This document shows positions 13,846 through 63,670 of a DNA stretch of 64,000 nucleotides, piece by piece. Numbering within the stretch: position 1 is the stretch's first letter; each line of letters begins with the position of its first letter. The notes below the pieces were generated by a model. The model was not told the DNA's origin. It saw only the letters and a program-made list of their open reading frames with translations, and did no database searches. The translations under genes and the position numbers were made by a program. The stretch lies in IMG/VR virus record IMGVR_UViG_3300005688_000042, one strand, 5' to 3'. Origin of the DNA: a virus. Its lineage: Duplodnaviria > Heunggongvirae > Uroviricota > Caudoviricetes.

Positions 13846-13873
13846 ATAGTTATAAGTTCATTAGGAGAATACC

Positions 13874-15457: not shown

Positions 15458-15474
15458 GTCATTGGAGTATTAAA

Positions 15475-15627: not shown

Positions 15628-15628
15628 T

Positions 15629-15901: not shown

Positions 15902-15910
15902 GAGAATATT

Positions 15911-16201: not shown

Positions 16202-16204
16202 ATA

Positions 16205-16516: not shown

Positions 16517-16534
16517 TAAAAGGATAATAAGTTT

Positions 16535-16814: not shown

Positions 16815-16823
16815 AACCAGTAG

Positions 16824-16852
16824 TTGACAGCAACACTAAATAGATGTAAGAT
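16824..16852 (+). promoter_or_regulatory. sigma70-type promoter TTGACA-gcaacACTAAATAgatg-TAAGAT (tRNA promoter family)
   Basis: 17-nt spacer; spacer carries ACTAAATA. Confidence 0.55.
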
Positions 16853-16863
16853 ACACAAATCAC

Positions 16864-16936
16864 GGGTATGCACTTTCGATGGACGATGGAATGAATACGA
16901 ATCATTCGGCTGTGGGTTCGACTCCTATCATGCCCG
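16864..16936 (+). tRNA. tRNA-Arg (anticodon ACG)
   Basis: Acceptor GGGTATG/CATGCCC, anticodon stem AATGA/TCATT with loop atACGaa; D-arm weak. Confidence 0.5.
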
Positions 16937-17088
16937 CAAAAAATTAAGAAATAGATTTAAGATGACTCAGATCGTATGTGACCTACGGTGGAATTCCCGG
17001 TTGGATGATCTATCGAACACTCATGTTAAATCTAGGGCAGTAAATGATTTAAGTACACGATTATTTACTGTCCATTAACAAAATATGT

Positions 17089-17162
17089 AGCGGTATAGCA
17101 TAATGGTAATGCATCTGACTTTGACTCAGACTATGGTGGTCCGATTCCATCTACCGCTGCCA
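17089..17162 (+). tRNA. tRNA-Gln (anticodon UUG), CCA encoded
   Basis: Acceptor AGCGGTA/TACCGCT, D-stem GCAT/ATGC, anticodon stem TCTGA/TCAGA with loop cuUUGac. Confidence 0.6.
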
Positions 17163-17880
17163 AATTATTAGATTTTTGAAATGATTTTTCTAAAATTTCT
17201 GGCATATATTTCTTCATCCATCTATTGATTTTCTGAGGTTTCTTACCAAGTAATGTGGCTAATTTTGTCACCCATCCATATTTTGTAAAATCAATATCAC
17301 AGTTTTTAATTATTTCCATATCATCTTTTATTTTTGTTGTTAGTTCTCCCGTCCTATAATTGTATATTTCTTTTCGGATTATTTCGGGTTTTATCTTTTT
17401 AGGTCTTTCTGGTTTTATCTTAACTGATCTCTTTTTGACATTTGCTCCGCAGAAGTTACTAGTCTGTGCGTGACAATTCCTACATAATAATCTTATATTT
17501 TCTAGTCGATGGTCTGTTGGATCTCCATTTATATGATCTAAATCCAATGGTATTGGTTTATCGTTCCATTCAGTTAATGAACATATAGAGCATTGATGAG
17601 AGAATATATTCTCTTTAATTAATCGCACTCTTAGTTTAGATGTTGTGTATGATGGATATTTCCCATCCAATATATCTTTTAGATTTATTTTAATGTTATT
17701 TTTCCCTATTTTATTATTTGTAAACTTATCTATATTTAAATCATATAACTTTATATAATAATTTAATGACTTATAAGAGTAATTGCTAGTAGTGTGTAAA
17801 CCTAGAAAATTAAAACACTCGGCTTTTGATGTACTGGCATTGATCGCCTCTTGTAAATCTTCTTTTGATATATAATTCAT
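17131..17880 (-). CDS. HNH homing endonuclease
   Basis: HNH motif DLDHINGDPTDHRLENIRLLCRNCH; late promoter and RBS upstream; last 32 nt overlap the tRNA-Gln 3' end on the opposite strand. Confidence 0.7.
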   Translation of the reverse strand: MNYISKEDLQEAINASTSKAECFNFLGLHTTSNYSYKSLNYYIKLYDLNIDKFTNNKIGKNNIKINLKDILDGKYPSYTTSKLRVRLIKENIFSHQCSICSLTEWNDKPIPLDLDHINGDPTDHRLENIRLLCRNCHAQTSNFCGANVKKRSVKIKPERPKKIKPEIIRKEIYNYRTGELTTKIKDDMEIIKNCDIDFTKYGWVTKLATLLGKKPQKINRWMKKYMPEILEKSFQKSNNLAAVDGIGPP

Positions 17881-17906
17881 TTTGAACCTTCTTATGTTGT
17901 TAATTG

Positions 17907-17914
17907 TATTTATA
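17907..17914 (-). promoter_or_regulatory. T4-type late promoter (TATAAATAC on the minus strand) for the HNH gene
   Basis: Plus strand reads gtatttatac; AAGAAGG RBS then ATG. Confidence 0.5.
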
Positions 17915-17955
17915 CAGATGGTTCGAATTTGTTATTTTCTAGGCAAAAACAACAG

Positions 17956-17984
17956 TTGACAAACATACTAAATAGGTGTAGTAT
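17956..17984 (+). promoter_or_regulatory. sigma70-type promoter TTGACA-aacatACTAAATAggtg-TAGTAT
   Basis: Same family as 16824. Confidence 0.55.
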
Positions 17985-17995
17985 GTATGAACAAT

Positions 17996-18071
17996 GCAAC
18001 TGTAGCTCAACTGGTAGAGCACTGGCGTGAAATGTCAGGTGTTGGAGGTTCGAAGCCTCTCGGTTGCACCA
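17996..18071 (+). tRNA. tRNA-Phe (anticodon GAA), CCA encoded
   Basis: Acceptor GCAACTG/CGGTTGC, D-stem GCTC/GAGC, anticodon loop guGAAau, T-loop TTCGAAG. Confidence 0.7.
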
Positions 18072-18086
18072 AAATTAAAGAATTAG

Positions 18087-18163
18087 GCGGGTGTGGTATA
18101 GTGGCTGTGCCCTGCGCTTCCAACGCAGAGTTTAGGTGGGTTCGATTCCCATCGCCCGCTCCA
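18087..18163 (+). tRNA. tRNA-Gly (anticodon UCC), CCA encoded
   Basis: Acceptor GCGGGTG/CGCCCGC, anticodon stem CTGCG/CGCAG with loop cuUCCaa, T-loop TTCGATT; followed by a T6 run. Confidence 0.7.
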
Positions 18164-18866
18164 ATTTTTTATATTTTCTCAAATCTAAATCTATCCCCAA
18201 CCGCTTACATCTTTTCTTAATTGCCGTGTCACTGACACCAAACTTCTCACCCAAAGACACCATTGAATGGTTTATGATCAATTCTGTCAATTCCTCTTTA
18301 GTGACGTTAAACTTTCTCATATTTTGAGTCCTGATGGCCTTTTTCTCTGCTGATTCATAGCTCTTCCGCTTGTCATTCTTCGGACGTTTGGAATTTCGAC
18401 CAGAAAATGTAGTAGTTTGGCTGTGACAGTTAGGACAAAGAAAACATAAATTTTCTAATCTATTGTCATCATTAATCCCATTAATGTGCTCTAATTGCAA
18501 GATTAATGGTTTGCCATTATGACTTCCATTATTATCACATTCAGAACATTTGTAAGCTAATAGATTATTTTCTGTTAGTATCTTTTTAATTGTTTTTCTA
18601 CTCGTCTTAGAACCAGTAACAAAAACATTGTGTATATTATGAGTACAATCTATGCGTGCTTTTCTATATTCTTTATAGTTTAATTTCATTTGTTCGGTAT
18701 TAATTGACTCCACACTGATCCTCCGTGTCAGTGTCCTATGGTTCCCGTTGTAACCATTAAATCCTAACTTCTCTAAAACTTCTACGATAGAACTACTTGT
18801 GTCTATCATGTTTTGTAAATCTTCTCTAGGTATTAACCATATTACTGACGTTCTTGGTTTTGGCAT
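18132..18866 (-). CDS. HNH homing endonuclease (start trimmed to MPKPRTS)
   Basis: LEHINGINDDNRLENLCFLCPNCH; late promoter plus AAGGAG RBS upstream of the ATG at 18866; C-terminus overlaps the tRNA-Gly 3' end. Confidence 0.65.
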   Translation of the reverse strand: MPKPRTSVIWLIPREDLQNMIDTSSSIVEVLEKLGFNGYNGNHRTLTRRISVESINTEQMKLNYKEYRKARIDCTHNIHNVFVTGSKTSRKTIKKILTENNLLAYKCSECDNNGSHNGKPLILQLEHINGINDDNRLENLCFLCPNCHSQTTTFSGRNSKRPKNDKRKSYESAEKKAIRTQNMRKFNVTKEELTELIINHSMVSLGEKFGVSDTAIKKRCKRLGIDLDLRKYKKLERAMGIEPT

Positions 18867-21189: not shown

Positions 21190-21756
21190 ATGAGAATAAA
21201 AATATCTGAATATGCAAAAATGAAAGGTGTGAGCCAGCGCACAGTATGGCGCTGGATCAAAAATAACGAACTACAAATAGAACATACACAAACTGGCAGG
21301 GTTCGCATCTTACTTGATGTCAATAAAGAGACAAAAGTCGCTGTTTATGCCCGAGTTTCGAGTACAGAAAACAAAGATAATCTTGATAGACAAAAAGATC
21401 GAGTTGTGTCTTATTGCAATGCCAAAGGATACAAAATAGAGAAGATTGTCACAGAAATTGGTTCTGGTTTAAATGACAACAGACCAAAACTTGAGTCGCT
21501 TTTAATAGATAAAGACATTGACTTGATTGTTGTGGAACACAAAGATCGATTAGCCCGTTTCGGCACCAATTACATCGAGAAATTGCTGGCTGTTTCTGAC
21601 AGAAAGATTGAGGTCATCAATCCGGTTCAGGACGAAAAAGAAGATTTAATGCAAGATTTCGTGTCACTTGTCACATCTTTTACAGCCCGGTTGTATGGAT
21701 TGCGTAGGTCCAAGCGACAGACCGAAAAGCTGATCCAATCCTTGGAAGCTGCATGA
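21190..21756 (+). CDS. tnpA: IS607-type TnpA: MerR-like HTH + serine recombinase (resolvase) domain
   Basis: KMKGVSQRTVWRW HTH; catalytic VYARVSS...RQ. Confidence 0.7.
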   Translation: MRIKISEYAKMKGVSQRTVWRWIKNNELQIEHTQTGRVRILLDVNKETKVAVYARVSSTENKDNLDRQKDRVVSYCNAKGYKIEKIVTEIGSGLNDNRPKLESLLIDKDIDLIVVEHKDRLARFGTNYIEKLLAVSDRKIEVINPVQDEKEDLMQDFVSLVTSFTARLYGLRRSKRQTEKLIQSLEAA

Positions 21757-22982
21757 AAGCTAGACGTGTAGAAAAGCATGCCATATGTCGCACAAGTCAT
21801 TATTTTAGTGACTTGTGTGATCTGACTCACAAGTCCAAAAACTTGTATAATGCATCTTTGTATGCCATTCGTCAGCATTTTTTCTCCACAAAAACATACA
21901 TCGGCTATTCAAAATTAGCTGGTGATTTCGCAAAAACTAATATAGATTACCAGCAATTACCTAGAAAAGTGTCACAACAGACCTTAAAATTGGTTGATCA
22001 AAATTTTAGATCATTCTTTGCTTTGTTGAAAGCAAAGAAAAATGACAAGGTACGTATACCAAATTACCTAGACAAATCAGGTAAATATGTGACAATTTTC
22101 ACTAATCAGGCATTATCTTTCGTTAAACCTGGATATGTAAAATTATCTGGTTATGACATCTTTATAAAGACAGAAAAAACAGATATACAACAGGTTAGAG
22201 TTGTTCCGAGAAGCAATCATTTTGATATAGAAGTGATATATTTGACAGATATAGAAGACAAAAGAAGTGACAATAGTCGTTATTTGTCCGTTGATATCGG
22301 TTTAAGTAATTTAGTAGCAACAGCGTCAAATGTCATGAAACCATTTTTAATAAATGGAAAACCATTGAAAGCTATAAACCAATATTATAATAAAAGAAAA
22401 GCAGAACTACAATCAAAATTAGGAGACAAAAGAAAGACAAGTAATAGAATCAACGCCATTTCTAGAAAAAGAAATGACAAAATTCGTGATTATTTACATA
22501 AAGCAAGTACGTGGCTTATTAATCAATTAGATTTCAACCAAATAAACACCTTAATAATCGGTGAAAATAAAGGTTGGAAACAAGAGATAAACATCGGAAA
22601 GAAAAATAATCAAAATTTTGTGTCAGTGCCATTCAATAAATTGAAACAAATGTTGACATATAAAGCCGAATCAAGAGGAATTAATGTCATTTGTCAGGAA
22701 GAGAGCTATACATCAAAGGCATCATGTTTGAGTAATGATATGATTCCGACATATGGAGAGAAGACGGATGACATGAAATTTTCTGGATATAGAAAAACCA
22801 GAGGAATTTATAAAGACAAATGTCTTGATTTAGAAATAAATGCAGATGTCAATGGCGCATATAATATTATGAGAAAAGCAGTCGGAGATGTAAAAATTGA
22901 TCCGATAGAGGCATGTAGTTGGCCCTTGTCAGTGAAAATTTCACTTGACACAAAACCTAAGTTATGTCATTATTGGCATTGA
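21753..22982 (+). CDS. tnpB: TnpB (OrfB) RuvC-like protein; C-terminal zinc finger degenerate
   Basis: RuvC-I VDIGLSN, RuvC-II IIGENKGW, RuvC-III NADVNGAYNI; both CxxC pairs lost (CLSND, CLDLE). Confidence 0.65.
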   Translation: MKARRVEKHAICRTSHYFSDLCDLTHKSKNLYNASLYAIRQHFFSTKTYIGYSKLAGDFAKTNIDYQQLPRKVSQQTLKLVDQNFRSFFALLKAKKNDKVRIPNYLDKSGKYVTIFTNQALSFVKPGYVKLSGYDIFIKTEKTDIQQVRVVPRSNHFDIEVIYLTDIEDKRSDNSRYLSVDIGLSNLVATASNVMKPFLINGKPLKAINQYYNKRKAELQSKLGDKRKTSNRINAISRKRNDKIRDYLHKASTWLINQLDFNQINTLIIGENKGWKQEINIGKKNNQNFVSVPFNKLKQMLTYKAESRGINVICQEESYTSKASCLSNDMIPTYGEKTDDMKFSGYRKTRGIYKDKCLDLEINADVNGAYNIMRKAVGDVKIDPIEACSWPLSVKISLDTKPKLCHYWH

Positions 22983-28702: not shown

Positions 28703-28801
28703 AGATCGGTGGTGCAATGGCAGCATACCAGTCTCCTAAATGTTTTTGTAAAAGAATATTTAGGAAAACTGATGATCGGGGTTCAAGTCCCTGCCGGTCT
28801 G
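28703..28801 (+). tRNA. over-long tRNA-like gene (~98 nt) with a 7-bp internal hairpin CCTAAAT/ATTTAGG
   Basis: Acceptor AGATCGG/CCGGTCT, D-stem GTGC/GCAT, T-arm CGGGG-TTCAAGT-CCCTG; anticodon not assignable. Confidence 0.3.
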
Positions 28802-35615: not shown

Positions 35616-35774
35616 ATGATGATAAAATTAGTAGATTTCGCAAAGACGCAAGGTGTATGTTACAGAACAGCTTACAATTGGTTCCACCTTGGCTACATCG
35701 AAGGTGCATACCAAACGGCATCACGCACTATATTGGTGCCGAAAGACGCCAAAGTTAAGAGAAAAAGCGAATAA
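35616..35774 (+). CDS. truncated IS607 TnpA: MerR-like HTH only (52 aa)
   Basis: Hand translation MMIKLVDFAKTQGVCYRTAYNWFHLGYIEG... parallels the TnpA N-termini of copies 1 and 3; no resolvase domain; AAAGGA RBS. Confidence 0.45.
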   Translation: MMIKLVDFAKTQGVCYRTAYNWFHLGYIEGAYQTASRTILVPKDAKVKRKSE

Positions 35775-35781
35775 AATCGCC

Positions 35782-36891
35782 GTGAATCTTGCCCACAAAA
35801 TTCAGTTAAAACCCAACAAAGAACAGAAGCAGATGCTGGCGCGAGCCGCAGGCTGCGCCAGATTCACTTACAATTGGGCTTTGGCCGAATGGAATAAGCA
35901 ATATATGGCAGGCGAGAAACCGTCAGCATTAAAATTGAAAAAGCAATTCAATTCCATTAAAAAGCAGGAATTTCCATGGATATACGATTCACCAAAAGAT
36001 GCAAATCAACAACCATTTACAAATTTACAAAGTGCTTTCAAAGGTTTCTTCGACAAACGAACCGCGTATCCGCAGTTTAAGAAAAAGTACAAACGCGATT
36101 CATTTTATGTCTCAAACGATCAATTTCACATAACTGATAATATGATTAAACTTCCACTAATTGGAAAAATTAAATTGGAAGAGACATTGAGATTTGAAGG
36201 TAAGATCATGTCTGCTGTGGTCAGTCGAAAAGCTGATAAATGGTTTATATCAATTGCGGTAGAGATGAATGATTATGGTAAAGCTAGAACATCAGATAAC
36301 ACCATAGCAATTGATTTTGGCATCAAAACTTTCGCGGTTGATCAAAATGGCGCATCTTTCGATGCACCAAAACCATTGAAAAACAAGCTTCAAAAGCTGA
36401 AAAGGTATCAGAGAATTTGTTCAAAGAGAAAAGATGGAAGTCAAAACAAAAAGAAACAAAGATGTAAAGTAGCAAAAATACATAAAGAAATCAGTGACTT
36501 ACGTCACGATTTCACACACAAATTTACAACTCAAATCTGTCGCGAAAACCAAACGATAATTATAGAAGATTTGAATTTGAAAAGCTGGAGCAAAATGTTT
36601 GGGAAGTCAGGAATTGATGGTGGCGTGGGCGAAGCCCGACGCCAACTCAAATACAAGTCATTGATTTATAACAACAATTTAGTTGTAATAGATAAATGGG
36701 CACCGACTTCCAAATCATGTTCTAGTTGTGGTAGCTATAAATCAGACTTGAAATTGAGTGATCGAATCTTCTGCTGTACGGATTGTGGTCATAAAATGGA
36801 CAGAGATTGGAATGCTGCCAAAAATATTTATGTCTCAGGAATGAGACAACTAGGGATGGCTTGTCCCGAAGTTACGCCTTTGGACATCTGA
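35782..36891 (+). CDS. tnpB: TnpB (OrfB), apparently intact; probable GTG start
   Basis: RuvC-I IDFGIKT, RuvC-II IIIEDLN, zinc finger CSSCGS...CTDCGH, RuvC-III DRDWNAAKNI; no in-frame ATG after the HTH ORF stop. Confidence 0.6.
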   Translation: MNLAHKIQLKPNKEQKQMLARAAGCARFTYNWALAEWNKQYMAGEKPSALKLKKQFNSIKKQEFPWIYDSPKDANQQPFTNLQSAFKGFFDKRTAYPQFKKKYKRDSFYVSNDQFHITDNMIKLPLIGKIKLEETLRFEGKIMSAVVSRKADKWFISIAVEMNDYGKARTSDNTIAIDFGIKTFAVDQNGASFDAPKPLKNKLQKLKRYQRICSKRKDGSQNKKKQRCKVAKIHKEISDLRHDFTHKFTTQICRENQTIIIEDLNLKSWSKMFGKSGIDGGVGEARRQLKYKSLIYNNNLVVIDKWAPTSKSCSSCGSYKSDLKLSDRIFCCTDCGHKMDRDWNAAKNIYVSGMRQLGMACPEVTPLDI

Positions 36892-38654: not shown

Positions 38655-38729
38655 GCCCATTTAGCTCAGAGAAAGAGCAGCGATAGCGTATAGCGGCGAG
38701 CGCGGGTTCAAGTCCCGTAGTGGGCTCCA
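38655..38729 (+). tRNA. tRNA-like gene with CCA, D-arm GCTC/GAGC, anticodon arm non-canonical (probable pseudo-tRNA)
   Basis: Acceptor GCCCATT/AGTGGGC, T-arm GCGGG-TTCAAGT-CCCGT; homologue of 40931..41002. Confidence 0.35.
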
Positions 38730-52156: not shown

Positions 52157-52735
52157 ATGAAACTTCGACAATGGGCAAATAAACAAGGGATTTCCTACTT
52201 GACAGCGCTTCGCTGGTTCAAGGCAGGTAAAATTCCAAATTCAACTCAATTCCCATCTGGCACCATCATAATACAAGATGAGCTGCCTGTCAACACGGAT
52301 GAAAATAAATCAGTACATATCTATGCCAGAGTTTCTTCACATGAGAAGAAAGATGATCTAACCAGACAAGCCCAAAGATGTGTTGAATTTGCTAATGCCA
52401 ATGGATACGAAATAATCTCAGTTACAAAAGAAATTGCTTCTGGCATGAATGATAAGCGACCAAAATTAATTAAATTGATTGAACAGAAACCAAAACATAT
52501 CATTGTTGAGCACAAGGACAGATTGACCAGATTTGGATTCAATTACTTTGATTTATTACTTCCTATGATTGGTTGTAAATTAACTGTTATGAATAGAGAT
52601 CAAGAAGAGCATGCGGATTTAATGAAAGATTTAGTTTCTGTTATTACATCATTTTGTTGTAAATTATATGGTCTGCGCAGAGCGCAGAACAAGAAACAAA
52701 AGATCCAACAAATATTGGAAGACGAAAATGTTTAA
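52157..52735 (+). CDS. tnpA: IS607-type TnpA serine recombinase with MerR-like HTH
   Basis: NKQGISYLTALRWF HTH; IYARVSS...RQ. Confidence 0.7.
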   Translation: MKLRQWANKQGISYLTALRWFKAGKIPNSTQFPSGTIIIQDELPVNTDENKSVHIYARVSSHEKKDDLTRQAQRCVEFANANGYEIISVTKEIASGMNDKRPKLIKLIEQKPKHIIVEHKDRLTRFGFNYFDLLLPMIGCKLTVMNRDQEEHADLMKDLVSVITSFCCKLYGLRRAQNKKQKIQQILEDENV

Positions 52736-53783
52736 AAGAGCTATTAAGTTGAAATCATATGCAACAGAAGCAAAGCAAAATAAAGTCCTTGCTTTGATTA
52801 GTCGCTATAGATGTCAAGTTAATATGTTTATAGATTACATCTGGAACAACAAAGAAACAGCAAAATTAGATGCTAAAACATTGAAATCTATAGATAAAGT
52901 TCAAGATTTATCCGAAAGATATAAATCCAATGCATTGAAACAGGCACTTCAAATTTGTAAAAGCGAAAAGAACAAATCCAAACCAGATTTCAATGGTTAT
53001 CCGGTGCTAGATGCAAAGTTCGTGTCTATTGACACGAACAAATCTTCAAAAGAATTTGATTTGTGGATAAAATTATCAACATTGAAATCTGGAAGACGAA
53101 TAGAAATACCAACAAAGAAGCATGCACATTTAAACAAATGGCTTAAAACTGGTACATTGATACAAGGCTGTGAGCTTCGCCCAGACGGTTTCATCGTCTG
53201 GGTAGAGGCGAACCCACCTGAAAAGAAAAATAGCTTGAAGGTCGGTGTAGACATCGGAATGAACAAGCTATTGACCACTAGCTATGGTGAAAAATTAGGA
53301 ACTGATTTTAATCGAATCAATGATAAAATTCTAAGGAAGAAAAAGAACAGTAAGAATTACAAAAGAGCCATAGCAGAAAAGAAAAACTATATAAATCAAT
53401 CAGTTAACTTGCTTCCGTGGACAGAAATGGAAGTGCTTTGCTATGAAAACATTAAAAATTTGAAGAAAGGAAGTACAAAAAGAAATAAACAAACAAGACA
53501 AAAACAGCAACATTGGAGCTATAGACAAGTTATAGAAGCTATGAAAATGAAGGCCCAAGCTAACCGTGTTAGCTTGGTCTATGTTAATCCGGCTTACACT
53601 TCTCAGAAATGTTCCGCTTGTGGTAATATTGCTGCATCCAGTCGATATCTAGAAAATTATTGTTGCATCAGTTGCGGTCATACACAAGACGCAGATGTAA
53701 ATGCAGCAAAAAATATTCTACACAAAGGACTAGACTGGATAACGAGCTTAGAGTCCGTTAAGTCAAAAAGTGCTATCATATGA
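52728..53783 (+). CDS. tnpB: TnpB (OrfB), intact RuvC motifs and zinc finger (start trimmed to MFKRAIKL, ATGTTTAA overlap)
   Basis: VDIGMNK, YENIKNL, YTSQKCSACG...CISCGH, DADVNAAKNI. Confidence 0.7.
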   Translation: MFKRAIKLKSYATEAKQNKVLALISRYRCQVNMFIDYIWNNKETAKLDAKTLKSIDKVQDLSERYKSNALKQALQICKSEKNKSKPDFNGYPVLDAKFVSIDTNKSSKEFDLWIKLSTLKSGRRIEIPTKKHAHLNKWLKTGTLIQGCELRPDGFIVWVEANPPEKKNSLKVGVDIGMNKLLTTSYGEKLGTDFNRINDKILRKKKNSKNYKRAIAEKKNYINQSVNLLPWTEMEVLCYENIKNLKKGSTKRNKQTRQKQQHWSYRQVIEAMKMKAQANRVSLVYVNPAYTSQKCSACGNIAASSRYLENYCCISCGHTQDADVNAAKNILHKGLDWITSLESVKSKSAII

Positions 53784-53864: not shown

Positions 53865-54038
53865 TCTTTCCTACCATCCCCGACCTCCATCCCATTTTAC
53901 CACATATAATATAACTCTGTCTTGTTGTTTTTTCGCAACATTCATAAACCGTTCATGAAGAAAGAAAACGGTTTTGTTCATTTACCGTTCATCGTACTGT
54001 GCTATGATTCATCCATACAAACCAACTGGAGAAAAGAA

Positions 54039-56261
54039 ATGCTTCTGAACGAACGTCGCAGTGAGGGCGCAGTGTCCAACATCCCGCAAGACTTGCGTGG
54101 ACAGTTTACCATTGCCGCTAATGGCAAGGCGTTTGAGATTCTTTCTAGCACACTGTATCAGGATAAGATCGGTTCCATCGTGCGTGAGATTTCTTGTAAC
54201 GCTTATGATGCCCATAAGGAAGCTGGCACTCCTGATCTCCCGTTTGAGATTCATCTGCCGTCTATTATGGAACCGTATTTTTCTGTAAAGGATTATGGTA
54301 TTGGTATGGACACTCACACTGTTGAGAATGTCTTTACTAGCCTATTCGTTTCTACCAAGGAAAACAGTAACGATTCCGTTGGCGCATTCGGTCTTGGTTC
54401 CAAGACTCCATTTGCTTATACTGATACCTTCAACGTGGTGGCAATCAAGGATGGTATGTCGCGTACCTTCACGATGTATAAGCGTGAGGATGGTACTCCT
54501 ATTCACAGTTTGCTTCTGGAAAAGGAAACTACTGAGCCTAATGGTGTTGAGATTATCATGCCGGTTAATAACCTTGGTGATCGTTCGGCATTTGCTAGGG
54601 CTATCTCTCGCCAATTGCATTTCTTTAAGGTTCGCCCGATTATCAAGGGTGGCGATCATTCTGTTGAATGGCAGGATGAACCTACTGATAATGATATTCT
54701 GGTTAAGTATCATAATATTACTATGTTTAAGACTGGCGATTATCGTCGTGGTGTAGTGGCGATTATGGGTCCGGTTGGATATGAATTGAATTTCCAGATT
54801 TTGAAAGAGAAACTTCCCAAGCATGAAAAGGTTATCTCTTGGTTGTCTAATCGTGTTATTCGAATTTACTTTAATATCGGTGATGTTTCCGTAACTCCTT
54901 CGCGTGAGAATCTTTCTTATGATTCTCGCACCATTAAGGCTTTTGATAAGGTTTTCGATGGTCTAATCGAAGAGATTACTGCTACCTTTGAAAAGCAATT
55001 CTCTGGATTCAAGACTCCTTGGGAACGTGCGCAGTTTATCGCAGAATCCAATGATGACGTTGGCAATATCATTGTAATCAAGAACGATAAGGATAATGAT
55101 GGTGTTGTGCGATTCACTGGTCGATATGCCTACTTTGATGTTCAATCGGTTAAAGAGGCTATGGGCGCGAATGCTTGCCATCTCCAGATTATGAGTGTCC
55201 AGCAATTGTCTGGCAATTCTAGGTCTACTTATGCTCAGAATCGCGTGGCTATTAATGAGTTTAATAACAGCCGCAAGTTTATTCTGATTGCGAATGATTG
55301 CAAGTATATGAAGCGTCGGTATATTGCTATCCATAATCAGAATCAGTATTCTACCTGTTGGGTAGTTGTGCCGAGTGATCTGGAAAAGAGTCTGGATATT
55401 CAAAAGGTTTTTGAAGATTCTGGTATTACCACTAAACTGTTGTCCGAGTTTGATCCGGTTGATGTTTCTAGCTCATATTCGTTTGTCAAGGCTCATGGGT
55501 ATATGGTTCCGTTTGAAGAGTTCAAGACTTCTAATCAGGATTTCTGTAAGACTCGTTATAACTGGACCAAGATTGTTGATAAGACTGTAATTGAACCGGC
55601 ATTCTATGTCGTGTCTGATAATGGGGTTATCAATGATTATAAGATTCTGACCAAGTTCAAGGAACTGGTTTCCCTTGGTCTAGTTCCCAATGAATATCAG
55701 ATTCCGATTTACGCTTTCCCCGTTAAGACCGCTGAAAAGATTGCAAAGGATGAAAATTGGATTCTGTTGAATAATTATATTAATGAGCATTTCAATGCTG
55801 ATGCAATTGCTAAACTGTATGCCGATGTATGGGAGAGTGCCGCTTATTTGAATGCTTTCAATTATATCAGGGATAATTCGGATGCGCGTTATCAATTGGT
55901 TCTGAATAATACCAAAGTTAAACAGTGGTTGCTTGATGTTGAATTGACCCTGTTTAGTAAGACTGAAGTTGCATCGCAATATGATTCTGTTATGCTTAAG
56001 CAGATTCTGCAACAGCGTCCGATTGGTAAGTTTAATCATATTGAGGCTACCATTCGGGATTATGTTACTGATAATATCAGGAAGCTGGTGGACCATTATC
56101 CACTGTTGAGGCATATTCGCCACAGTTATTATTTTACTGTTGACGCACAATCAAAGGCTGAATTTGCGGAATATATGGATATGTATGATGCCAAGCATGG
56201 TGCGCCACTTCTTCCGCCTGTAGACTTGGAAGTGCTCGAAAAGTTGTTGACACCGAGCTAA
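54039..56261 (+). CDS. rIIA: rIIA-like protein (GHKL ATPase-like N-domain)
   Basis: KAFEILSSTLY / CNAYDAH / DYGIGMD / GAFGLGSKT match the T4 rIIA N-terminus and Bergerat-fold boxes; start trimmed to MLLNERR with GGAG RBS. Confidence 0.7.
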   Translation: MLLNERRSEGAVSNIPQDLRGQFTIAANGKAFEILSSTLYQDKIGSIVREISCNAYDAHKEAGTPDLPFEIHLPSIMEPYFSVKDYGIGMDTHTVENVFTSLFVSTKENSNDSVGAFGLGSKTPFAYTDTFNVVAIKDGMSRTFTMYKREDGTPIHSLLLEKETTEPNGVEIIMPVNNLGDRSAFARAISRQLHFFKVRPIIKGGDHSVEWQDEPTDNDILVKYHNITMFKTGDYRRGVVAIMGPVGYELNFQILKEKLPKHEKVISWLSNRVIRIYFNIGDVSVTPSRENLSYDSRTIKAFDKVFDGLIEEITATFEKQFSGFKTPWERAQFIAESNDDVGNIIVIKNDKDNDGVVRFTGRYAYFDVQSVKEAMGANACHLQIMSVQQLSGNSRSTYAQNRVAINEFNNSRKFILIANDCKYMKRRYIAIHNQNQYSTCWVVVPSDLEKSLDIQKVFEDSGITTKLLSEFDPVDVSSSYSFVKAHGYMVPFEEFKTSNQDFCKTRYNWTKIVDKTVIEPAFYVVSDNGVINDYKILTKFKELVSLGLVPNEYQIPIYAFPVKTAEKIAKDENWILLNNYINEHFNADAIAKLYADVWESAAYLNAFNYIRDNSDARYQLVLNNTKVKQWLLDVELTLFSKTEVASQYDSVMLKQILQQRPIGKFNHIEATIRDYVTDNIRKLVDHYPLLRHIRHSYYFTVDAQSKAEFAEYMDMYDAKHGAPLLPPVDLEVLEKLLTPS

Positions 56262-56314: not shown

Positions 56315-57403
56315 ATGGCAACGATTCCCTTCATCTCCACCGAAAATGCTGTTACGGTCGCCGTCGATGGCGCAGCATACACGATTCCAAAGACTGCACC
56401 TAACTATAAGGATGTTAAGTCTGCACTGGTTCGTGGCGAGACCGATGTATCCATTTTTAAGCGTCTTCTGAACATCCGCGAGTATGTTGCACAGTTGACC
56501 GAGGGTCGCGCTGAACTGGTCGATGGTAAGTTGTATTTTGATGGTGGCCCGATGCGTGGTGCTCTTGCTGATCGTGTCGCTACCATGTTCGCAGAAGGTT
56601 TCGGGGTGGCTCCACTGTTGCGCTTCCTGAACCGTGTTGCTGCCAATCCGCGTCTGGACAAGGATAGTAAACTGTATTCGCCTAAGTTTGAAGATGAACT
56701 GTATTTGTTCCTTGAAGGTGGCGATTGCCCGATTACTGAGAATGGCACGTTCCTCGCTTATAAGATGGTGAATTCCGATTTTACGGATATTTACACTGGT
56801 AAGATGGACAATAGTCCGGGCACTCTGGTATCTTTGAAGAGTCCGGAGAATGTTGATCCTGAACGTATGAATACCTGCTCGTATGGTCTGCATTTTGCAT
56901 CGCTGAATTATGTTCTGAATGGTGGATATGGTTCAGGTTCGCATGGTCATCGTCTGGTAGTGGTTGAAATTGATCCCGCTGATGTTATCTCAATTCCTTA
57001 CGATTACGGTAACTCCAAGGGTCGTGCATGGAAGTATACTATCCTCCGTGAGATTGAATGGAATGATCGTATCAAGCCGAATTTCATTTCCACCAACGAT
57101 TGTAACGGTTGGGATGATGCGGAAGATTTTGATGAAGATGATTATGTAGATGATTATGAAGACGATGCAGACGAAGAACAAGGTAATCTGGAGTGGATGA
57201 AGGATGCCGAAGGTCGAGAAGATACTGAGAATGAAGTTGTAAACGTGGTCGCTGTTGGAGTGTTGGAGGACAACGAAGTCCGTGGCATCCGAGCATCGCT
57301 GGCGAGGGGTGAGACTCTGGCAGCAATCGCAAGGTTCTATCAGGTTAGCCCGCGAACTGTAGCACGCATCCGCGATGGTGAAACCTACTCTCACGTAAAG
57401 TGA
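56315..57403 (+). CDS. rIIB: rIIB-like protein with extra acidic tract and C-terminal HTH
   Basis: ENGTFLAYKMV, MDNSPGTLVSLKSP, CSYGLHFASLNYV, VVVEIDPADVISIPYDYGNSKGRAWKYTIL parallel T4 rIIB; directly follows rIIA. Confidence 0.7.
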   Translation: MATIPFISTENAVTVAVDGAAYTIPKTAPNYKDVKSALVRGETDVSIFKRLLNIREYVAQLTEGRAELVDGKLYFDGGPMRGALADRVATMFAEGFGVAPLLRFLNRVAANPRLDKDSKLYSPKFEDELYLFLEGGDCPITENGTFLAYKMVNSDFTDIYTGKMDNSPGTLVSLKSPENVDPERMNTCSYGLHFASLNYVLNGGYGSGSHGHRLVVVEIDPADVISIPYDYGNSKGRAWKYTILREIEWNDRIKPNFISTNDCNGWDDAEDFDEDDYVDDYEDDADEEQGNLEWMKDAEGREDTENEVVNVVAVGVLEDNEVRGIRASLARGETLAAIARFYQVSPRTVARIRDGETYSHVK

Positions 57404-57536: not shown

Positions 57537-58055
57537 ATGAAAAATTTTATTAAAGTCGTATGTGCATCGGTCTTAGCCCTTGCATCAATTTCAGCAGTAG
57601 CCAAGCAGAATTATGTTACACTTCCACCAGTACCAGTTACTACAGCAGTGGTTCCAGCAGATGCCTCCGGTTATTGGGCGTCGTATCAGGTTCCCGGCTT
57701 AAAAGTGGTCCTAGCGTCAGGTAGCTACTATGCAGGTAGCTATGGTCCAGCTACTTGCGGAAAGGTTTTAAGAGCTACAGTCTCAATCCCTCGCACTGGT
57801 CCAGTTAACGGTTGGATACACGCAGAAGGTTACAAGCACGATTCTACCAATACGGGAATCCCGTATGGTCAAAGTTTCAACCTCTTGACAAAGTCTGCAC
57901 TAGCTGGTACCTTTAGTGTCGTAGCATACGATGCAACCAACAACTACTTAACAATTCAGTTAAGTACGCCAGCGGGTGGCCCTTCTGGAACTTTTGTGTT
58001 GAATCGTGATCCAACTACACCGTACACTGCGTTAGTGGTTCCAAATTGTCAATAA
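57537..58055 (+). CDS. secreted protein (signal peptide)
   Basis: MKNFIKVVCASVLALASISAVA; AGGAGA RBS. Confidence 0.5.
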   Translation: MKNFIKVVCASVLALASISAVAKQNYVTLPPVPVTTAVVPADASGYWASYQVPGLKVVLASGSYYAGSYGPATCGKVLRATVSIPRTGPVNGWIHAEGYKHDSTNTGIPYGQSFNLLTKSALAGTFSVVAYDATNNYLTIQLSTPAGGPSGTFVLNRDPTTPYTALVVPNCQ

Positions 58056-58083: not shown

Positions 58084-58114
58084 AAGGGGTGCTTGACGCA
58101 CCCCTTCTTTTTTG
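58084..58114 (+). terminator. rho-independent terminator
   Basis: AAGGGGTGC-ttgac-GCACCCCTT followed by CTTTTTT. Confidence 0.7.
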
Positions 58115-58153
58115 ATATAGTCTATCCACACTAACAACAGGACATAAAAACAA

Positions 58154-58345
58154 ATGAGCAACCTGAACAACCTTCAGGCACGTTTGATTACACTCTCCAA
58201 GCAACTTGCTGAAGCTCGTGGGATGGATGAAGTGGACGATGAACTCGTAGAAGATTTAGAAGATATGATCGCGGACATCGAAGATGAGATTGAAGGAATA
58301 CTCGCAGACGAGTATGATTCGAAGCACGGGGCGCAGTGGAATTAA
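58154..58345 (+). CDS. small acidic protein
   Basis: ORF track. Confidence 0.45.
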   Translation: MSNLNNLQARLITLSKQLAEARGMDEVDDELVEDLEDMIADIEDEIEGILADEYDSKHGAQWN

Positions 58346-58352
58346 ATTATAA

Positions 58353-58425
58353 GCCTCGGTAGCTTAGTGGCCTAAAGCGACTTTCTCTAAAATTGTGATC
58401 GTGAGTTCAAATCTCACCCGAGGCG
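58353..58425 (+). tRNA. tRNA with anticodon CUA (amber-suppressor-like); anticodon stem has two U-U mismatches
   Basis: Acceptor GCCTCGG/CCGAGGC disc G, D GCTT/AAGC, loop cuCUAaa, T-arm GTGAG-TTCAAAT-CTCAC; alternative registers pair worse. Confidence 0.4.
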
Positions 58426-58433
58426 ATATAATC

Positions 58434-59057
58434 ATGTTCCGTTTCCTTGTAAAAGTTCCTAACAAAGTCGGGGTTGCATTTTCCGGTGGAGTCGATTCAT
58501 TGGCTATCGCACATTTCCTGAAAAAGGGAAATAAGGAAGTCACCCTATACCATTTTAACCATCTATGTCAATACTCGGCAGACATTGAGTATAAATGTTG
58601 TCGTCTGGCTGATAGACTCAGAATGCCTATTGTTCTGGCTAGTTATCATGGACAACGTGAGAAGGGACAATCCCTTGAAGACGCATGGCGTAGAGCTAGG
58701 TATCGTTTTCTTAGATCATGTGATCAACAGATTATCACTGGTCATCATATCGATGATGCCGTAGAAACGTGGGTGTGGTCTTCATTACATGGTGAAGGTA
58801 AGTTGATCCCTGTAACTTCTGGTAACATCATCCGTCCGTTTTTGACAACAGAAAAATCAGTTTTCGAAAATCATTGTAAAATCAATAAGTTAGATGTTGT
58901 TGAAGATGAAATGAACAAAGATTTACATCTAATGCGCAATTATATGAGAGCAAATATGATGCAACACATCTATCATATTAATCCGGGATTACGGAAAGTA
59001 ATCAAGAAAAAATACATAAATATGATTAATATTCCAGAATTAGAAGATGACAGTTAA
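58434..59057 (+). CDS. PP-loop ATPase, tRNA(Ile)-lysidine synthetase (TilS)-like; 3' end replaced by the downstream insertion
   Basis: SGGVDS PP-loop; start trimmed to MFRF to clear the tRNA; C-terminal 45 aa duplicated at 60720-60833. Confidence 0.55.
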   Translation: MFRFLVKVPNKVGVAFSGGVDSLAIAHFLKKGNKEVTLYHFNHLCQYSADIEYKCCRLADRLRMPIVLASYHGQREKGQSLEDAWRRARYRFLRSCDQQIITGHHIDDAVETWVWSSLHGEGKLIPVTSGNIIRPFLTTEKSVFENHCKINKLDVVEDEMNKDLHLMRNYMRANMMQHIYHINPGLRKVIKKKYINMINIPELEDDS

Positions 59058-60720
59058 AGAAGAACTACGAGAGATATTCAAACAAAAAAACTGGCCGGGA
59101 TGGTTAGCTAGGAATAGACCACTATTGTTGGCTGAATTAAAACGATTAACTAATTTTGTTCCTGAAGATTTTCCTTTGGTTGTAAGAGCATGGCACATAA
59201 CGAACGAAGTATTCACAATACCAAAATGTGCTCTGTGCGATCAAGTTGTTTTTCTTCGAAAAAAGCAAAACACATACAGTGACTATTGTAGAGAATGTGC
59301 AAGAAAGGTAGAACAACAGAATAGAGAAAAAGCGGTATTGAAAAAATATGGAACCCGCCAGATTTTATCTGTTGGTAGTATTCGCGAAAGTATCAAAAAA
59401 ACTAATTTGAAAAAATATGGCGTAGAATTTGTATCTCAATCTAAAATAATACGAGATAAAATAGAGAATACGGTTAAAGAAAAATATGGAGTATCCAACC
59501 CTTCGCAAGCCGATAGTGTTAAGCAAAAGAAAATTATTAAGTCAATGAAAGTCTACGGTGTTGCTAATCCTCTGATGGTAGATGAAATAAAGGATAAGAT
59601 CAAAGAAACAAATAAAGAAAAATATGGCACGCAAAATGCTATGCAATCTGATAAGATTAAAAATAAAAATAAAGCGACTTGTTTACAAAAATATGGTGTT
59701 GAATTTCATGTGCAAAAAAATCTATCTAACGAAGCATTAGAGGTTTTAAATTCAAAAGATATATTGATTGATATGCATCATAACAAAAAGATGACACAGG
59801 GGGAAATAGCCAAAATCATCGATGTTACTCAAACTACTGTATCTAATTATTGTTTTAAGCATAACATAGAAGTTAAACATTACTTCAGATCTGCTGGAGA
59901 AAAAGAGCTTTTCGATTTTGTGCTATCATCATTTCCAAACGCGATTCCCAACTATAGAAAAATAGCAGGCGTAGAGTTGGATTGCTTCATACCAGATATA
60001 TCATTAGCGATAGAATATAATGGAGTATATTGGCATAGTGAAAAAGTTGGTAAGACACAAAACTTTCATGCTGACAAATATAATTTATGTAAAGATAATG
60101 GAATACGACTAATAACAATCTTCGAAAATGAGTGGACTGAAAAAAATGATTTAGTAAAATTAAAATTATTAAACATATTCGGAAAATCACAAGAACGTAA
60201 GATATTCGCAAGAAAAACTACAATCTGTGAGGTATCTACAAAAGATAAGAATAATTTTTTTGATTTGTACCATATACAAGAATCTGGCCCATCGTCCATA
60301 AATTTTGGCTTAATGAGTGACAATGATTTAGTTGCATGTATGGGTTTCATTAAGTACAATGATTATTATGTTTTGAATAGATACGCATCCTCATGTAATG
60401 TTGTTGGCGGATTTACCAAATTGTTAACACATTTTGAAAACAAATTTGATAAACCTAAGATAGTGACATTTGCAGACTTAAGATGGTCGGGAGGAGATTT
60501 ATATCACAATTCAAAATTTAAGCTTGACAGTGTGCTTGAACCTGATTATAGTTGGGTTAAAGATGGAAAGGTTTGGCATAAATTTAGTTGGAGACATACT
60601 TCCGGTCTTAAAAAATTACAAAATTATGACCCAAACAAATCAGAGATAGAAAACATGCATGCTCATGGATTCTATCGCTTATGGGACTGTGGTAAGCTGC
60701 GGTTCGTAAAAAACACTTGA
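59047..60720 (+). CDS. homing-endonuclease-like protein: Zn ribbon + six KYG-type homing-endonuclease-associated repeats + Vsr/DUF559-like PD-(D/E)xK nuclease + C-terminal domain
   Basis: Repeats KYGTRQ, KYGVEFVSQ, KYGVSNPSQ, VYGVANPLM, KYGTQNAMQ, KYGVEFHVQ; nuclease motif VELDCFIPDISLAIEYNGVYWH. Confidence 0.55.
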   Translation: MTVKEELREIFKQKNWPGWLARNRPLLLAELKRLTNFVPEDFPLVVRAWHITNEVFTIPKCALCDQVVFLRKKQNTYSDYCRECARKVEQQNREKAVLKKYGTRQILSVGSIRESIKKTNLKKYGVEFVSQSKIIRDKIENTVKEKYGVSNPSQADSVKQKKIIKSMKVYGVANPLMVDEIKDKIKETNKEKYGTQNAMQSDKIKNKNKATCLQKYGVEFHVQKNLSNEALEVLNSKDILIDMHHNKKMTQGEIAKIIDVTQTTVSNYCFKHNIEVKHYFRSAGEKELFDFVLSSFPNAIPNYRKIAGVELDCFIPDISLAIEYNGVYWHSEKVGKTQNFHADKYNLCKDNGIRLITIFENEWTEKNDLVKLKLLNIFGKSQERKIFARKTTICEVSTKDKNNFFDLYHIQESGPSSINFGLMSDNDLVACMGFIKYNDYYVLNRYASSCNVVGGFTKLLTHFENKFDKPKIVTFADLRWSGGDLYHNSKFKLDSVLEPDYSWVKDGKVWHKFSWRHTSGLKKLQNYDPNKSEIENMHAHGFYRLWDCGKLRFVKNT

Positions 60721-60866: not shown

Positions 60867-61979
60867 ATGAACACCTTCCAGCAGACTCTTTACAATGATC
60901 TCATGAAGCTCTGTGAGAACGAAGCTTTCTACTATGTGGATCAGAATGTAGACGGTAAGGTTTTCCGTGTGTTCACTTATCGTTTGGCATCCTACACTGA
61001 ATTCTGCCTCCCGAATGCACTGGAATGCCGTGGTCATACCTTCCTGATGGATGGTGACACTGCGGTGGATTTGGTTTGTCTTCCGCCTGCAAAGTTTTTC
61101 AATCTATACGAAAACAATTTCACAATGGATTTAGATCTAAAGAATGCTGTTCTTTATATGGATAAACTCGACGGCTCATTGATTTCAACCGTAAAAGATT
61201 CAACGATGCATCATGGATTTCGTTTGAAGTCAAAAACTTCATTCATTTCCCAACAAGCCGTTGACGCATATCAATTTCTCTTAAGCAACCATCATTTGTT
61301 AATGGTTGTTTCTGAATATATTGATGATGGATATACTGTAAATTTTGAATGGATCGGAAGTTCTAACCAAATTGTGGTTCGTTATCCGGAACATTCATTA
61401 AAAGTATTAAGCGCACGCAACTTGTTGAACGGTCATACAGAATATCCAGACATTTCTCTTCAACATCAGTTGAGTTCAAAATATGTGGTATCATGTGATT
61501 ATACGATGCGCTCATATGAAGAAATTCTTGATATGACTGGCGTTGAAGGTTTCGTTGTTTTGTTTAATGATGGTCGATTGGCAAAAATAAAAAACAACTG
61601 GTATTCAAAAATTCATCGTTGTAAAGATAGTGTAAACAATCCAAAGGCGCTGTTTCAGGCTTGTCTGTATGAAACTTCTGATGACTTGCGTTCACTGTTC
61701 CATGATGATGAACTGGCGATGAAGCAGATCACTGCAATGGAAACTTTGGTACGTACTAACTTCAATCACATTTCTTCACAGTTGCAGAAGTTTTACGATG
61801 AAAATAAGTTGCTTTCGAGGAAAGATTACGCGATACTTGCGCAACAAACTTTCAAGGATGGCACATTCCCTCTCGCAATGAATCTTTATCTTGGTAAGGA
61901 TATGGGATTGAAGGATTGGATGATGAAGAACTATCGTGAATTCGGTATTACTGATGTTCAACTAGAATCGGAGAATTGA
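60867..61979 (+). CDS. rnlA: RNA ligase 1 (T4 gp63/RnlA homologue)
   Basis: ALECRGHTF, AKFFNLYENNFTMDLDL, nucleotidyl-transfer motif MDKLDGSL, NPKALFQACL, SDDLRSLFHDDE parallel T4 Rnl1 along its length. Confidence 0.8.
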   Translation: MNTFQQTLYNDLMKLCENEAFYYVDQNVDGKVFRVFTYRLASYTEFCLPNALECRGHTFLMDGDTAVDLVCLPPAKFFNLYENNFTMDLDLKNAVLYMDKLDGSLISTVKDSTMHHGFRLKSKTSFISQQAVDAYQFLLSNHHLLMVVSEYIDDGYTVNFEWIGSSNQIVVRYPEHSLKVLSARNLLNGHTEYPDISLQHQLSSKYVVSCDYTMRSYEEILDMTGVEGFVVLFNDGRLAKIKNNWYSKIHRCKDSVNNPKALFQACLYETSDDLRSLFHDDELAMKQITAMETLVRTNFNHISSQLQKFYDENKLLSRKDYAILAQQTFKDGTFPLAMNLYLGKDMGLKDWMMKNYREFGITDVQLESEN

Positions 61980-63594: not shown

Positions 63595-63670
63595 GGCCCG
63601 GAAGCTTATTCGGTCAAGCAGCAAACTCATAATTTGAAGAAAATGGGTTCGAATCCCATACGGGCCACCA
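63595..63670 (+). tRNA. tRNA with anticodon CAU (Met, or Ile2 if lysidinylated), CCA encoded
   Basis: Acceptor GGCCCGG/ACGGGCC (one mismatch), D GCTT/AAGC, loop cuCAUaa, T-arm ATGGG-TTCGAAT-CCCAT. Confidence 0.55.

Follow-up and report, generated by a model that had tools for sequence, protein, structure and literature searches.

The 64,000-nucleotide stretch of IMG/VR virus record IMGVR_UViG_3300005688_000042 analyzed here (the window) contains a transfer RNA (tRNA) gene with the anticodon CUA directly upstream of a gene for a TilS-like lysidine synthetase. This tRNA(CUA) is confirmed as a genuine tRNA of the amber-suppressor type (CUA, U33, A37, and A38), and comparison with related phages indicates that it is kept under selection for both its cloverleaf and its CUA anticodon. 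The most likely explanation, to which we give a probability of about 0.6, is that the two genes perform separate jobs: weak amber suppression by tRNA(CUA) and decoding of AUA codons by way of TilS. The window belongs to a ~307-kb phage, of which the window itself and ~5 kb downstream (L001) were read.

The tRNA was called by ARAGORN at exactly positions 58353-58425 on the plus strand, as a 73-nt tRNA with a CUA anticodon and as one of nine tRNAs in the window. Its full-length match to the Rfam tRNA model RF00005 (model positions 1 to 71), for which the gathering score is 29, scored 56.2 bits (E = 9e-12), on par with the other tRNAs of the same phage. An initial annotation, made by inspection of the sequence, had proposed this cloverleaf and this anticodon register, and both were recovered at the same coordinates, with no sense anticodon assigned and an Rfam score well above threshold. 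The acceptor stem (GCCUCGG/CCGAGGC), D arm (GCUU/AAGC), and T arm (GUGAG/CUCAC) are all perfect, the variable loop has 4 nt, and the 7-nt anticodon loop reads C32-U33-CUA-A37-A38, i.e., with U33 and a purine at position 37. The anticodon stem (ACUUU/AUUGU) has the two U-U mismatches that were also part of the initial annotation, located at U29·U41 and U30·U40. The discriminator is G73, and the 3′ CCA is not encoded, whereas it is encoded in nearly all the other tRNAs of the phage and in five of five relatives. Five independent assemblies, each from a different sample, share an identical 904-nt block running from an upstream 63-amino-acid (aa) open reading frame (ORF) to the TilS stop codon, and the U·U mismatches and the missing CCA are therefore real. 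The window copy, which has the two U·U pairs and lacks an encoded CCA, is the weakest of the tRNA(CUA) family. An origin from tRNA-Trp by a change of the anticodon from CCA to CUA, as in Escherichia coli su7, was considered on account of a tRNA-Trp in L054. It was dropped because the anticodon-masked score for Trp was only ~0.69, no higher than those for the Thr, CAU, and Lys tRNAs.

The evidence for selection comes from the relatives. A CUA tRNA is found in the same slot of L006 (in a modified form), L060, L061, L064, and L065, whose TilS proteins are 73 to 82% identical to that of the window. The gene order in these relatives is rIIA-rIIB-172aa-63aa-gap-TilS, with a CUA tRNA in every gap; the pairing of tRNA and TilS is conserved rather than accidental. 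The six tRNAs are only 58 to 79% identical pairwise, except for L064 and L065, which are 97% identical. The sequence CUAAA, however divergent the surrounding tRNA, is invariant in all six. In a six-sequence cloverleaf alignment, 97.5% of the pair cells are standard, and 13 of the 20 stem pairs show compensatory (two-sided) changes. None of 500 column shuffles reached the observed covariation, controls with slid partners were only 29 to 48% paired, and RNAalifold independently recovered the cloverleaf from the alignment. Just three pair cells are nonstandard, two of them being U29·U41 and U30·U40 of the window. At these two pairs, the relatives have G-C/G-C, G·U/A-U, or U-A/A-U, and the anticodon stems of L061, L064, and L065 are perfect. 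The sequence of L006 also has an apparent tertiary covariation, A19 and U56 replacing G19 and C56.

A good example of the retention of the anticodon is L006 (2225-3000). The 19 nt just before its TilS start (ATCCTGACTAGGGGCGCCA) match the 3′ end of an L060-type CUA tRNA exactly and are a remnant of such a tRNA. On the 5′ side of the remnant there is an HNH/HTH endonuclease gene (2239-2877, minus strand) and then a different, complete CUA tRNA, so that the distance from the complete tRNA to TilS is ~700 nt with the endonuclease gene in between. The remnant together with the different complete tRNA shows that the tRNA was replaced as a cassette with the anticodon retained. Unless CUA is under selection, its survival through such a replacement would be difficult to account for. 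A search with a D-arm motif common to the window and L006 (GTAGCTTAGNGNNCTAAAGCG), with the anticodon left free, found no new family members; the motif is generic, occurring in Trp, His, Met, and Asp tRNAs and in tRNA-like fragments.

The junction between the two genes is tight. The TilS start is the ATG at position 58434, in agreement with all homologues, and the spacer is therefore 8 nt. The placement of the tRNA immediately 5′ of TilS in the initial annotation was correct, while its gap of 9 nt was not. The Shine-Dalgarno (SD)-like sequence for TilS read from the window is GAGG at 58420..58423 (plus strand); it is part of the 3′ strand of the tRNA acceptor and precedes the ATG by 10 nt. In L060, L064, and L065, the TilS ATG is 2 nt after the CCA of the tRNA, and the sole SD in these loci is again the acceptor 3′ strand, 7 nt before the ATG (GGAGG in L064 and L065 and AGGGG in L060). 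The tRNA remnant in L006 also carries an SD-like AGGGG. In L061, the spacer is 14 nt and has a purine-rich SD of its own. With the SD located in the acceptor stem, translation of TilS would be impeded by folding of this stem or by processing of the tRNA 3′ end. Consensus scans found a promoter-like site, TTGACG-17-TATAGT, at 58093-58121 (plus strand), overlapped by a terminator-like hairpin at 58084-58106 (plus strand). The region 58084..58121 is the probable start of a transcription unit consisting of the 63-aa ORF, the tRNA, and TilS, the promoter function being suggested by the consensus match. Between the tRNA and TilS, the scan detected no terminator-like site and no promoter-like site of ≥10 matches.

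The TilS-like protein (58434..59057, plus strand) has 207 aa and consists of the PP-loop catalytic N-terminal domain only. The initial annotation had recognized the PP-loop motif SGGVDS (residues 17 to 22) as TilS-like, and the profile searches agreed: the protein matched PF01171 with an E value of 3e-30 and passed the cutoff of the NCBIfam model for the TilS N-terminal domain, TIGR02432 (107.2 bits versus a cutoff of 93.6). It failed the full-length TilS model NF007942 (54 bits versus a cutoff of 606), and its alignment was limited to residues 26-224, 14-196, and 21-221 of three solved TilS structures. The AlphaFold model had a predicted local distance difference test (pLDDT) score of 90.5. 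Its best structural matches were the Aquifex and E. coli TilS structures (1wy5, 2e21, and 1ni5), with TM-scores of 0.77 to 0.81 by query (TMq) and 0.39 to 0.56 by target (TMt). This difference means that the model spans the catalytic domain and nothing beyond it.

Bacterial TilS of type I (E. coli and Geobacillus kaustophilus) and type II (Aquifex aeolicus) has the catalytic motifs, TIGR02432, and the fold in common with the phage protein. However, C-terminal domain 1 (CTD1; types I and II) and CTD2 (type I) of the cellular enzymes are both missing from the phage TilS. In cellular TilS, these domains touch the anticodon and acceptor stems and discriminate tRNA-Ile2 from tRNA-Met (PMC12514573 and PMC2500205). 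Compared with bacterial TilS, the catalytic domain is therefore present but the anticodon-contacting domains are absent. At least 258 TilS homologues were found, and among the 120 matches listed, nearly all were ~195 to 220 aa. The catalytic residues are conserved across 20 diverse homologues, whether associated with a CUA tRNA, with a CAU tRNA, or with no tRNA. The conserved motifs are the PP-loop SGGxDS, HHxxDxxET, RP, EDExN, and RN, and the invariant residues are the same in the CUA-associated and CAU-associated enzymes. Judging from these sequences, the ~200-aa TilS constitutes a large uniform family that fits neither type I nor type II of the cited literature.

The initial annotation had linked the tRNA to stop-codon recoding, and the coding sequences gave no support for this. 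Under the standard code, the window consists of densely packed short genes. Reassigning TAG, TGA, or TAA in the window added spurious ORFs and did not raise the mean or maximum ORF length. No TAG in the window had open, coding-like sequence both before and after it, and no coding ORF was interrupted by a TAG. Among 100 confident window genes, TAG is the stop codon in five, compared to the 20 to 26% expected from off-frame and intergenic trinucleotides (P ≈ 3e-5), and TAA is the stop codon in 54%. The five credible TAG-terminated genes have backup stops 2 to 13 codons downstream. Because the window is an early-type region, a late-gene region was examined in a relative, a 315-kb IMG/VR phage carrying the tRNA-TilS pair of L006. 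In this phage, the capsid gene was located by a back-translated invariant peptide and the surrounding 20.8 kb (L228) were analyzed. Under code 11, coding sequence makes up 87.5% of L228; its capsid gene (467 aa) is intact, as are ORFs of 972, 601, 578, and 478 aa. The stops of its 22 called ORFs are TAA (14), TGA (5), and TAG (3), and no in-frame TAG was found in the coding ORFs of these 20.8 kb. Related capsid genes are also uninterrupted, with near end-to-end matches in the best 80 loci and full length in the 120 homologues listed. With the window, L228, and the capsid homologues all uninterrupted and all consistent with the standard code, recoding is not supported. One TAA in L228, at position 16584 between same-frame ORFs of 972 and 578 aa (13668-18326), was considered as a read-through site; ochre read-through there, across the TAA and a gap of one codon, would fuse both ORFs. 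It is probably a coincidence, because the homologous genes in phage Xoo-sp13 are offset by 2 nt.

The phage carries a more conventional candidate substrate for TilS. A tRNA with the anticodon CAU was called by ARAGORN at 63595..63670 (plus strand), with the acceptor strand GGCCCGG, the pairs C3-G70, C4-G69, and C5-G68, and A73. It is not fMet-like, since it has C11-G24 and a paired 1-72, and an orthologue is present in L065. Recognition by E. coli TilS depends chiefly on C4-G69 and C5-G68, pairs that are often found in tRNA-Ile(CAU), whereas tRNA-Met has the negative determinants U4-A69 and A5-U68 (PMC12514573, PMC2500205, and PMC1635315). The pair G3-C70 also marks tRNA-Ile(CAU) as opposed to tRNA-Met (Silva et al., PMC1635315). 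By these acceptor-stem rules, the CAU tRNA is probably tRNA-Ile2, the canonical TilS substrate, rather than an elongator tRNA-Met. Since ATA makes up 28% of the Ile codons in the window (20 per 1,000 codons), a phage-borne TilS with tRNA-Ile2 has an obvious use. About 430 nt past the end of the window (L001:16000-16094), there is also a 95-nt tRNA with the anticodon UAU, which reads AUA directly. It has a 25-nt stem-loop in the variable region of an otherwise class I body, A73, and CCA, and the phage may thus have two routes to AUA decoding.

The pairing of tRNA(CUA) with TilS is not obligatory. In L007 and L062 (TilS 75% and 66% identical, respectively), the slot holds a DUF7275 protein and a small ORF instead of a tRNA, and no tRNA adjoins the TilS genes of L309 (64%), L312 (57%), or L063 (54%). 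A CAU tRNA occupies the slot in L310 (61%), 39 nt 5′ of TilS. A CAU tRNA also lies directly upstream of TilS in L020, ~375 nt upstream in L038, and within tens of nucleotides 3′ of TilS in L008 to L015, and most of the TilS-adjacent CAU tRNAs carry G3-C70. This adjacency across distant loci suggests that it is common for TilS to sit beside its canonical substrate and that the CUA slot is a speciality of the window's clade. Descent of tRNA(CUA) in place from an L310-type CAU tRNA was also considered and is not supported, the identity being 58 to 68%, about background. When metagenomes were scanned with the TilS alignment, degenerate patterns swamped the results and only distant relatives came back, but these did reveal CAU tRNAs next to TilS.

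Other unusual RNA genes were seen around the more distant TilS homologues. In L311 (5970-6127), ~1.4 kb 3′ of a TilS homologue (59%), there is a tandem tRNA pair. The first member has an 8-nt anticodon loop, AUUCUAAC, for which ARAGORN gave the anticodon "tcta" and which is frameshift-suppressor-like, and the second is a normal CUA tRNA; a CAU tRNA follows 1.1 kb beyond the pair. ARAGORN also called transfer-messenger RNAs (tmRNAs; tag peptide ANDNFVRNEQIAQSIVVRDRDLVAA) 1 to 2 kb 5′ of TilS in L012 (873-1309), L013 (873-1309), and L015 (1651-2090). A tmRNA near TilS in these distant phage relatives would be another translation-rescue element in the neighborhood.

Several known systems share parts of this arrangement. 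Phage XacN1, from the nearest cultured clade, was reported in 2018 to have two tandem CUA tRNA-Sup genes and 18 amber stops, with no read-through targets found (PMC5852040). Its suppressors resemble the window tRNA in the identical loop CUCUAAA and the weak anticodon stem, their discriminators are split between A73 and G73, and the phage likewise has a standard code with few ambers. In contrast, the XacN1 suppressors sit in a terminal-repeat tRNA array and not beside TilS, and no XacN1 homologue came up when phage records were searched with the TilS of the window. The XacN1 suppressors are 64 to 66% identical to the window tRNA, no better than unrelated tRNAs, and common descent is therefore not shown. 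The two suppressors (L308:36047-36205) are nearly identical to each other in the D, anticodon, and T arms, and their acceptor stems are unrelated and their discriminators differ (A and G), which suggests two charging identities for one anticodon. The acceptor strand of XacN1 Sup1, GGCCCGU, almost equals the GGCCCGG of the CAU tRNA in the window.

Phage TilS has been noted in the Pseudomonas jumbo phages PA5oct and MIJ3, annotated as tRNA(Ile)-lysidine synthetase (PMC6892783). These proteins are also ~200 aa with the N-terminal domain only and are 37.5% identical over 88% of the query. Unlike in the window, there is no tRNA within 4 kb of the PA5oct gene and no rII/RNA ligase 1 (Rnl1) neighborhood. 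The Ralstonia jumbo phage RsoM2USA has a CUA suppressor, TilS, and a large tRNA set in one genome (PMC8504454). However, its TilS has 349 aa with a C-terminal extension and was not among the tblastn matches of the window TilS, and no adjacency or link between suppressor and TilS was reported (PMC8504454). Low-GC phages with a standard code, a depleted stop codon, and an acquired suppressor have been described as a possible prelude to recoding (Borges et al., 10.1101/2021.08.26.457843). The recoded crAss-like, Lak, and Agate phages share the CUA tRNA, low GC content, and TAG depletion, which fits a pre-recoding stage. Unlike these phages, the window and L228 have no in-frame TAG in coding ORFs, and no coding density is gained under code 15 in the regions examined. 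No release-factor gene was seen in the window, where no systematic search for one was made. On this comparison, the locus fits the descriptions of XacN1, PA5oct/MIJ3, and Borges et al. alike.

If the two genes have separate jobs, the tRNA(CUA) would be cotranscribed with TilS from the promoter 5′ of the 63-aa ORF and excised by host RNase P and 3′-end processing enzymes. CCA would be added by a host enzyme, and charging would presumably be carried out by a host synthetase. The charged tRNA would then read UAG at low efficiency. Under a standard code with only ~5% of the genes ending in TAG, such suppression would cost the phage little. The benefit may be buffering of amber nonsense mutations, disturbance of host termination, or both, and the state would be one in which a suppressor has been acquired and the code is unchanged, as described for low-GC phages. 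TilS would act on the phage's own CAU tRNA at 63595-63670, its likely target, where conversion of C34 to lysidine would allow AUA to be read. The coupling of the tRNA with TilS would come from shared tRNA-cluster ancestry and operon compaction, and a limit set on TilS translation by tRNA folding or processing may be a side effect of it.

Several observations weigh against this explanation. No amber-suppression target or benefit was identified, and there was no sign of programmed extensions in the window. TAG depletion is common in low-GC phages with or without suppressors, and the late-gene data come from a relative with only 77% TilS identity to the window. The tRNA bodies nearest to tRNA(CUA) are those of Lys, CAU, and Thr tRNAs, at ~0.70 to 0.77 identity. 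The tight conserved junction, the CUA tRNAs that L026 and L311 have no more than ~2 kb from TilS, and the presence of both genes in RsoM2USA could mean a functional link. In addition, the minimum free energy (MFE) fold of the window tRNA lacks the anticodon arm, whereas the tRNAs of L061, L060, and L064 fold as cloverleaves. The U·U pairs, the unformed anticodon arm, and the missing CCA make activity of this copy doubtful. It is conceivable, though unlikely, that the tRNA(CUA) of the window is decaying or inactive and persists mainly as a carrier of the TilS ribosome-binding site, the family being functional in the relatives. Two of the three nonstandard cells of the alignment being in this copy would fit decay, as would its being the sole family member without CCA in a phage most of whose other tRNAs encode it, and the GAGG of its acceptor 3′ strand doubles as the SD of TilS. 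However, U·U pairs are tolerated inside helices, and CCA-less phage tRNAs are completed by host CCA-adding enzymes, as in T4. The tRNA scores as well in Rfam as the other tRNAs of the phage, its acceptor, D, and T arms are perfect, its loop CUCUAAA is intact and the same as in the XacN1 suppressors, whose anticodon stems likewise contain just three Watson-Crick pairs, and its sequence is fixed in five assemblies of different samples. A related suggestion, that the tRNA-shaped leader is a cis element controlling TilS translation by folding or processing, or bound by TilS for autoregulation, we regard as quite improbable. The SD would indeed be hidden by folding of the acceptor stem, 3′ processing in L060, L064, and L065 would cut at the start codon, and the tRNA and TilS are not separated by a terminator or promoter-like site. 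But a leader has no need of a perfect T-loop, the change from G19-C56 to A19-U56, an encoded CCA, or an invariant CUAAA. Moreover, L061 has a separate SD, ~700 nt and an endonuclease gene intervene in L006, and XacN1-type CUA tRNAs occur away from any TilS.

The functional link, if there is one, could be that a TilS without C-terminal domains reads the anticodon loop only and lysidinylates the cotranscribed CUA tRNA, which would shift its reading from UAG to UAA or switch its charging. The initial annotation had offered the reading of UAA by a lysidinylated CUA tRNA as pure speculation. In PMC12069591, citing Ikeuchi 2005, the anticodon-loop determinants of E. coli TilS are given as U33, C34, and A37, with positions 35 and 36 not listed, and these determinants leave room for the idea. 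The window tRNA carries all three of the determinants so reported, and the phage TilS does not have the domains that check the acceptor stem (PMC12514573). The conserved junction, the occurrence of the known substrate type (CAU) in the same slot of L310, L020, and L038, and the cases of L026, L311, and RsoM2USA are also consistent with this idea. The CUA tRNA of L060 is alone among 247 tRNAs in having G27·U43 together with C4-G69 and C5-G68, with an estimated chance of ~0.05. An enrichment of TilS acceptor determinants among the CUA tRNAs in general was tried and was not convincing (2 of 9, compared to 18 of 248 overall). The hints from the L060 pairs and the XacN1 Sup1 acceptor are weak, and the evidence against lysidinylation is stronger. 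With TAA ending 54% of the window genes and 14 of the 22 L228 genes, efficient ochre reading would hit most genes, and no in-frame TAA was found in coding ORFs except the one coincidence of adjacent genes. TilS is kept without a slot tRNA in L007, L062, and L309, XacN1 keeps its CUA suppressors and yielded no TilS homologue in the search of phage records, L064 and L065 have C33 rather than the determinant U33, the invariant TilS residues do not differ between the CUA- and CAU-associated enzymes, and a canonical CAU substrate is present in the phage. No report of lysidine on a CUA anticodon was found in the literature searched. This makes lysidinylation of the tRNA(CUA) improbable, although, if true, it would be the first natural case of a tRNA-modifying enzyme being retargeted to a stop-codon-reading tRNA, with translation of TilS gated by folding or processing of its own target. 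Least probable is that TAG is recoded to sense in late genes outside the window with the tRNA as the agent, as in crAss-like and Lak phages. Recoded phages do concentrate in-frame stops in late genes, the window is an early/accessory region in which TAG is rare as a stop, and ~240 kb of the phage lies outside the regions read. However, the capsid gene and large ORFs of L228 are intact at a standard-code coding density of 87.5% with TAG used as a stop (3 of 22), the capsid homologues are uninterrupted, and the code is also standard in XacN1, which has a suppressor of this kind.

The surroundings of the pair are those of a phage accessory region. Judging from protein matches, the source of the window is a T4-like jumbo phage akin to the Xanthomonas and Stenotrophomonas phages XacN1, Xoo-sp13, and RAS14. 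A megablast of the locus against GenBank phages gave no match, and the relatives were traced through proteins, the best cultured ones by rIIA and Rnl1 being the jumbo myoviruses Xoo-sp13, XacN1, and Stenotrophomonas CM1/RAS14. The GC content of the window is 36.7%. The neighbors on the 5′ side are rIIA-like (53922-56261) and rIIB (56315-57403), followed by a 172-aa ORF with a signal-peptide-like N terminus (57537..58055, plus strand), with which the accessory block between rIIB and Rnl1 begins. This ORF has the same position in L001 to L004, L006, L060, L061, L064, and L065. Directly 5′ of the tRNA is the 63-aa ORF (58154..58345, plus strand), which is strongly acidic with D/E runs; an ORF of 61 to 65 aa is at the same place in all close relatives, with only a weak match to DUF4404 in Pfam. 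On the 3′ side, a 557-aa homing endonuclease gene (59047..60720, plus strand; PHROG 3339 with an E value of 8e-118, PHROG 559 [HNH], and DUF7487) overlaps the TilS stop, and Rnl1 follows at 60867-61979. Endonucleases of other kinds are near the same locus elsewhere (HNH in L006 and GIY-YIG in L060), which makes it a hot spot for mobile or homing endonucleases. In XacN1 and Xoo-sp13, rIIA, rIIB, and Rnl1 are directly adjacent and the accessory block is absent. This means that the block of 172-aa ORF, 63-aa ORF, tRNA(CUA), and TilS is an accessory insertion of the window's clade. Elsewhere in the window, there are three transposase-type genes (21753-22982, 35653-36891, and 52157-53783, plus strand), two of which match PHROG 506. 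The third locus is an IS607-like pair, a serine resolvase and a Cas12f1-like TnpB, just 5′ of rIIA. Such a load of insertion elements is unusual for a lytic-type jumbo phage.

Some tRNA-like sequences that ARAGORN did not call were also found. At 28703-28801 (plus strand), a sequence with an Rfam tRNA score of 44.6 bits has the loop CU-CCU-AA (Arg, AGG) and, after the anticodon loop, an insertion of ~28 nt that forms a perfect hairpin (CCTAAAT...ATTTAGG) and may be a small tRNA intron or insert. At 38655-38726 (plus strand), a sequence with 40.6 bits encodes CCA and is well formed in the acceptor, D, and T arms, with a degenerate anticodon arm (an ATAGCG/TATAGCG repeat); this may be either a pseudo-tRNA or a tRNA-like RNA that does not decode. 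In the phage tRNA clusters of L051 (612-690) and L055 (5960-6036), there are sequences with an acceptor 5′ strand, D arm, and T arm and no anticodon arm (GGGCGGTAGCTTAGTGGTCTAAAGCGCGGCGAGATGGTGGTTTCGAAGTCCACC...).

We did not find the conserved tRNA(CUA)-TilS junction, the SD inside the tRNA, the retention of CUA through cassette replacement, or the ~200-aa TilS as an architecture of its own described in the literature searched. CUA suppressors in non-recoding phages are a recognized loose end. To this the locus adds evidence of selection for such a tRNA and a conserved physical partner, a catalytic-domain-only TilS whose ribosome-binding site lies inside the tRNA. If the two genes work independently, which is the likeliest case, the locus is a neat but otherwise ordinary instance of a phage carrying translation accessories. 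With one tRNA gene and one 207-aa enzyme, it is also a compact cloneable test system, in which it can be asked whether a TilS without C-terminal domains tells tRNA-Ile2 from other C34 tRNAs and whether lysidine is placed on a stop-codon-reading anticodon.

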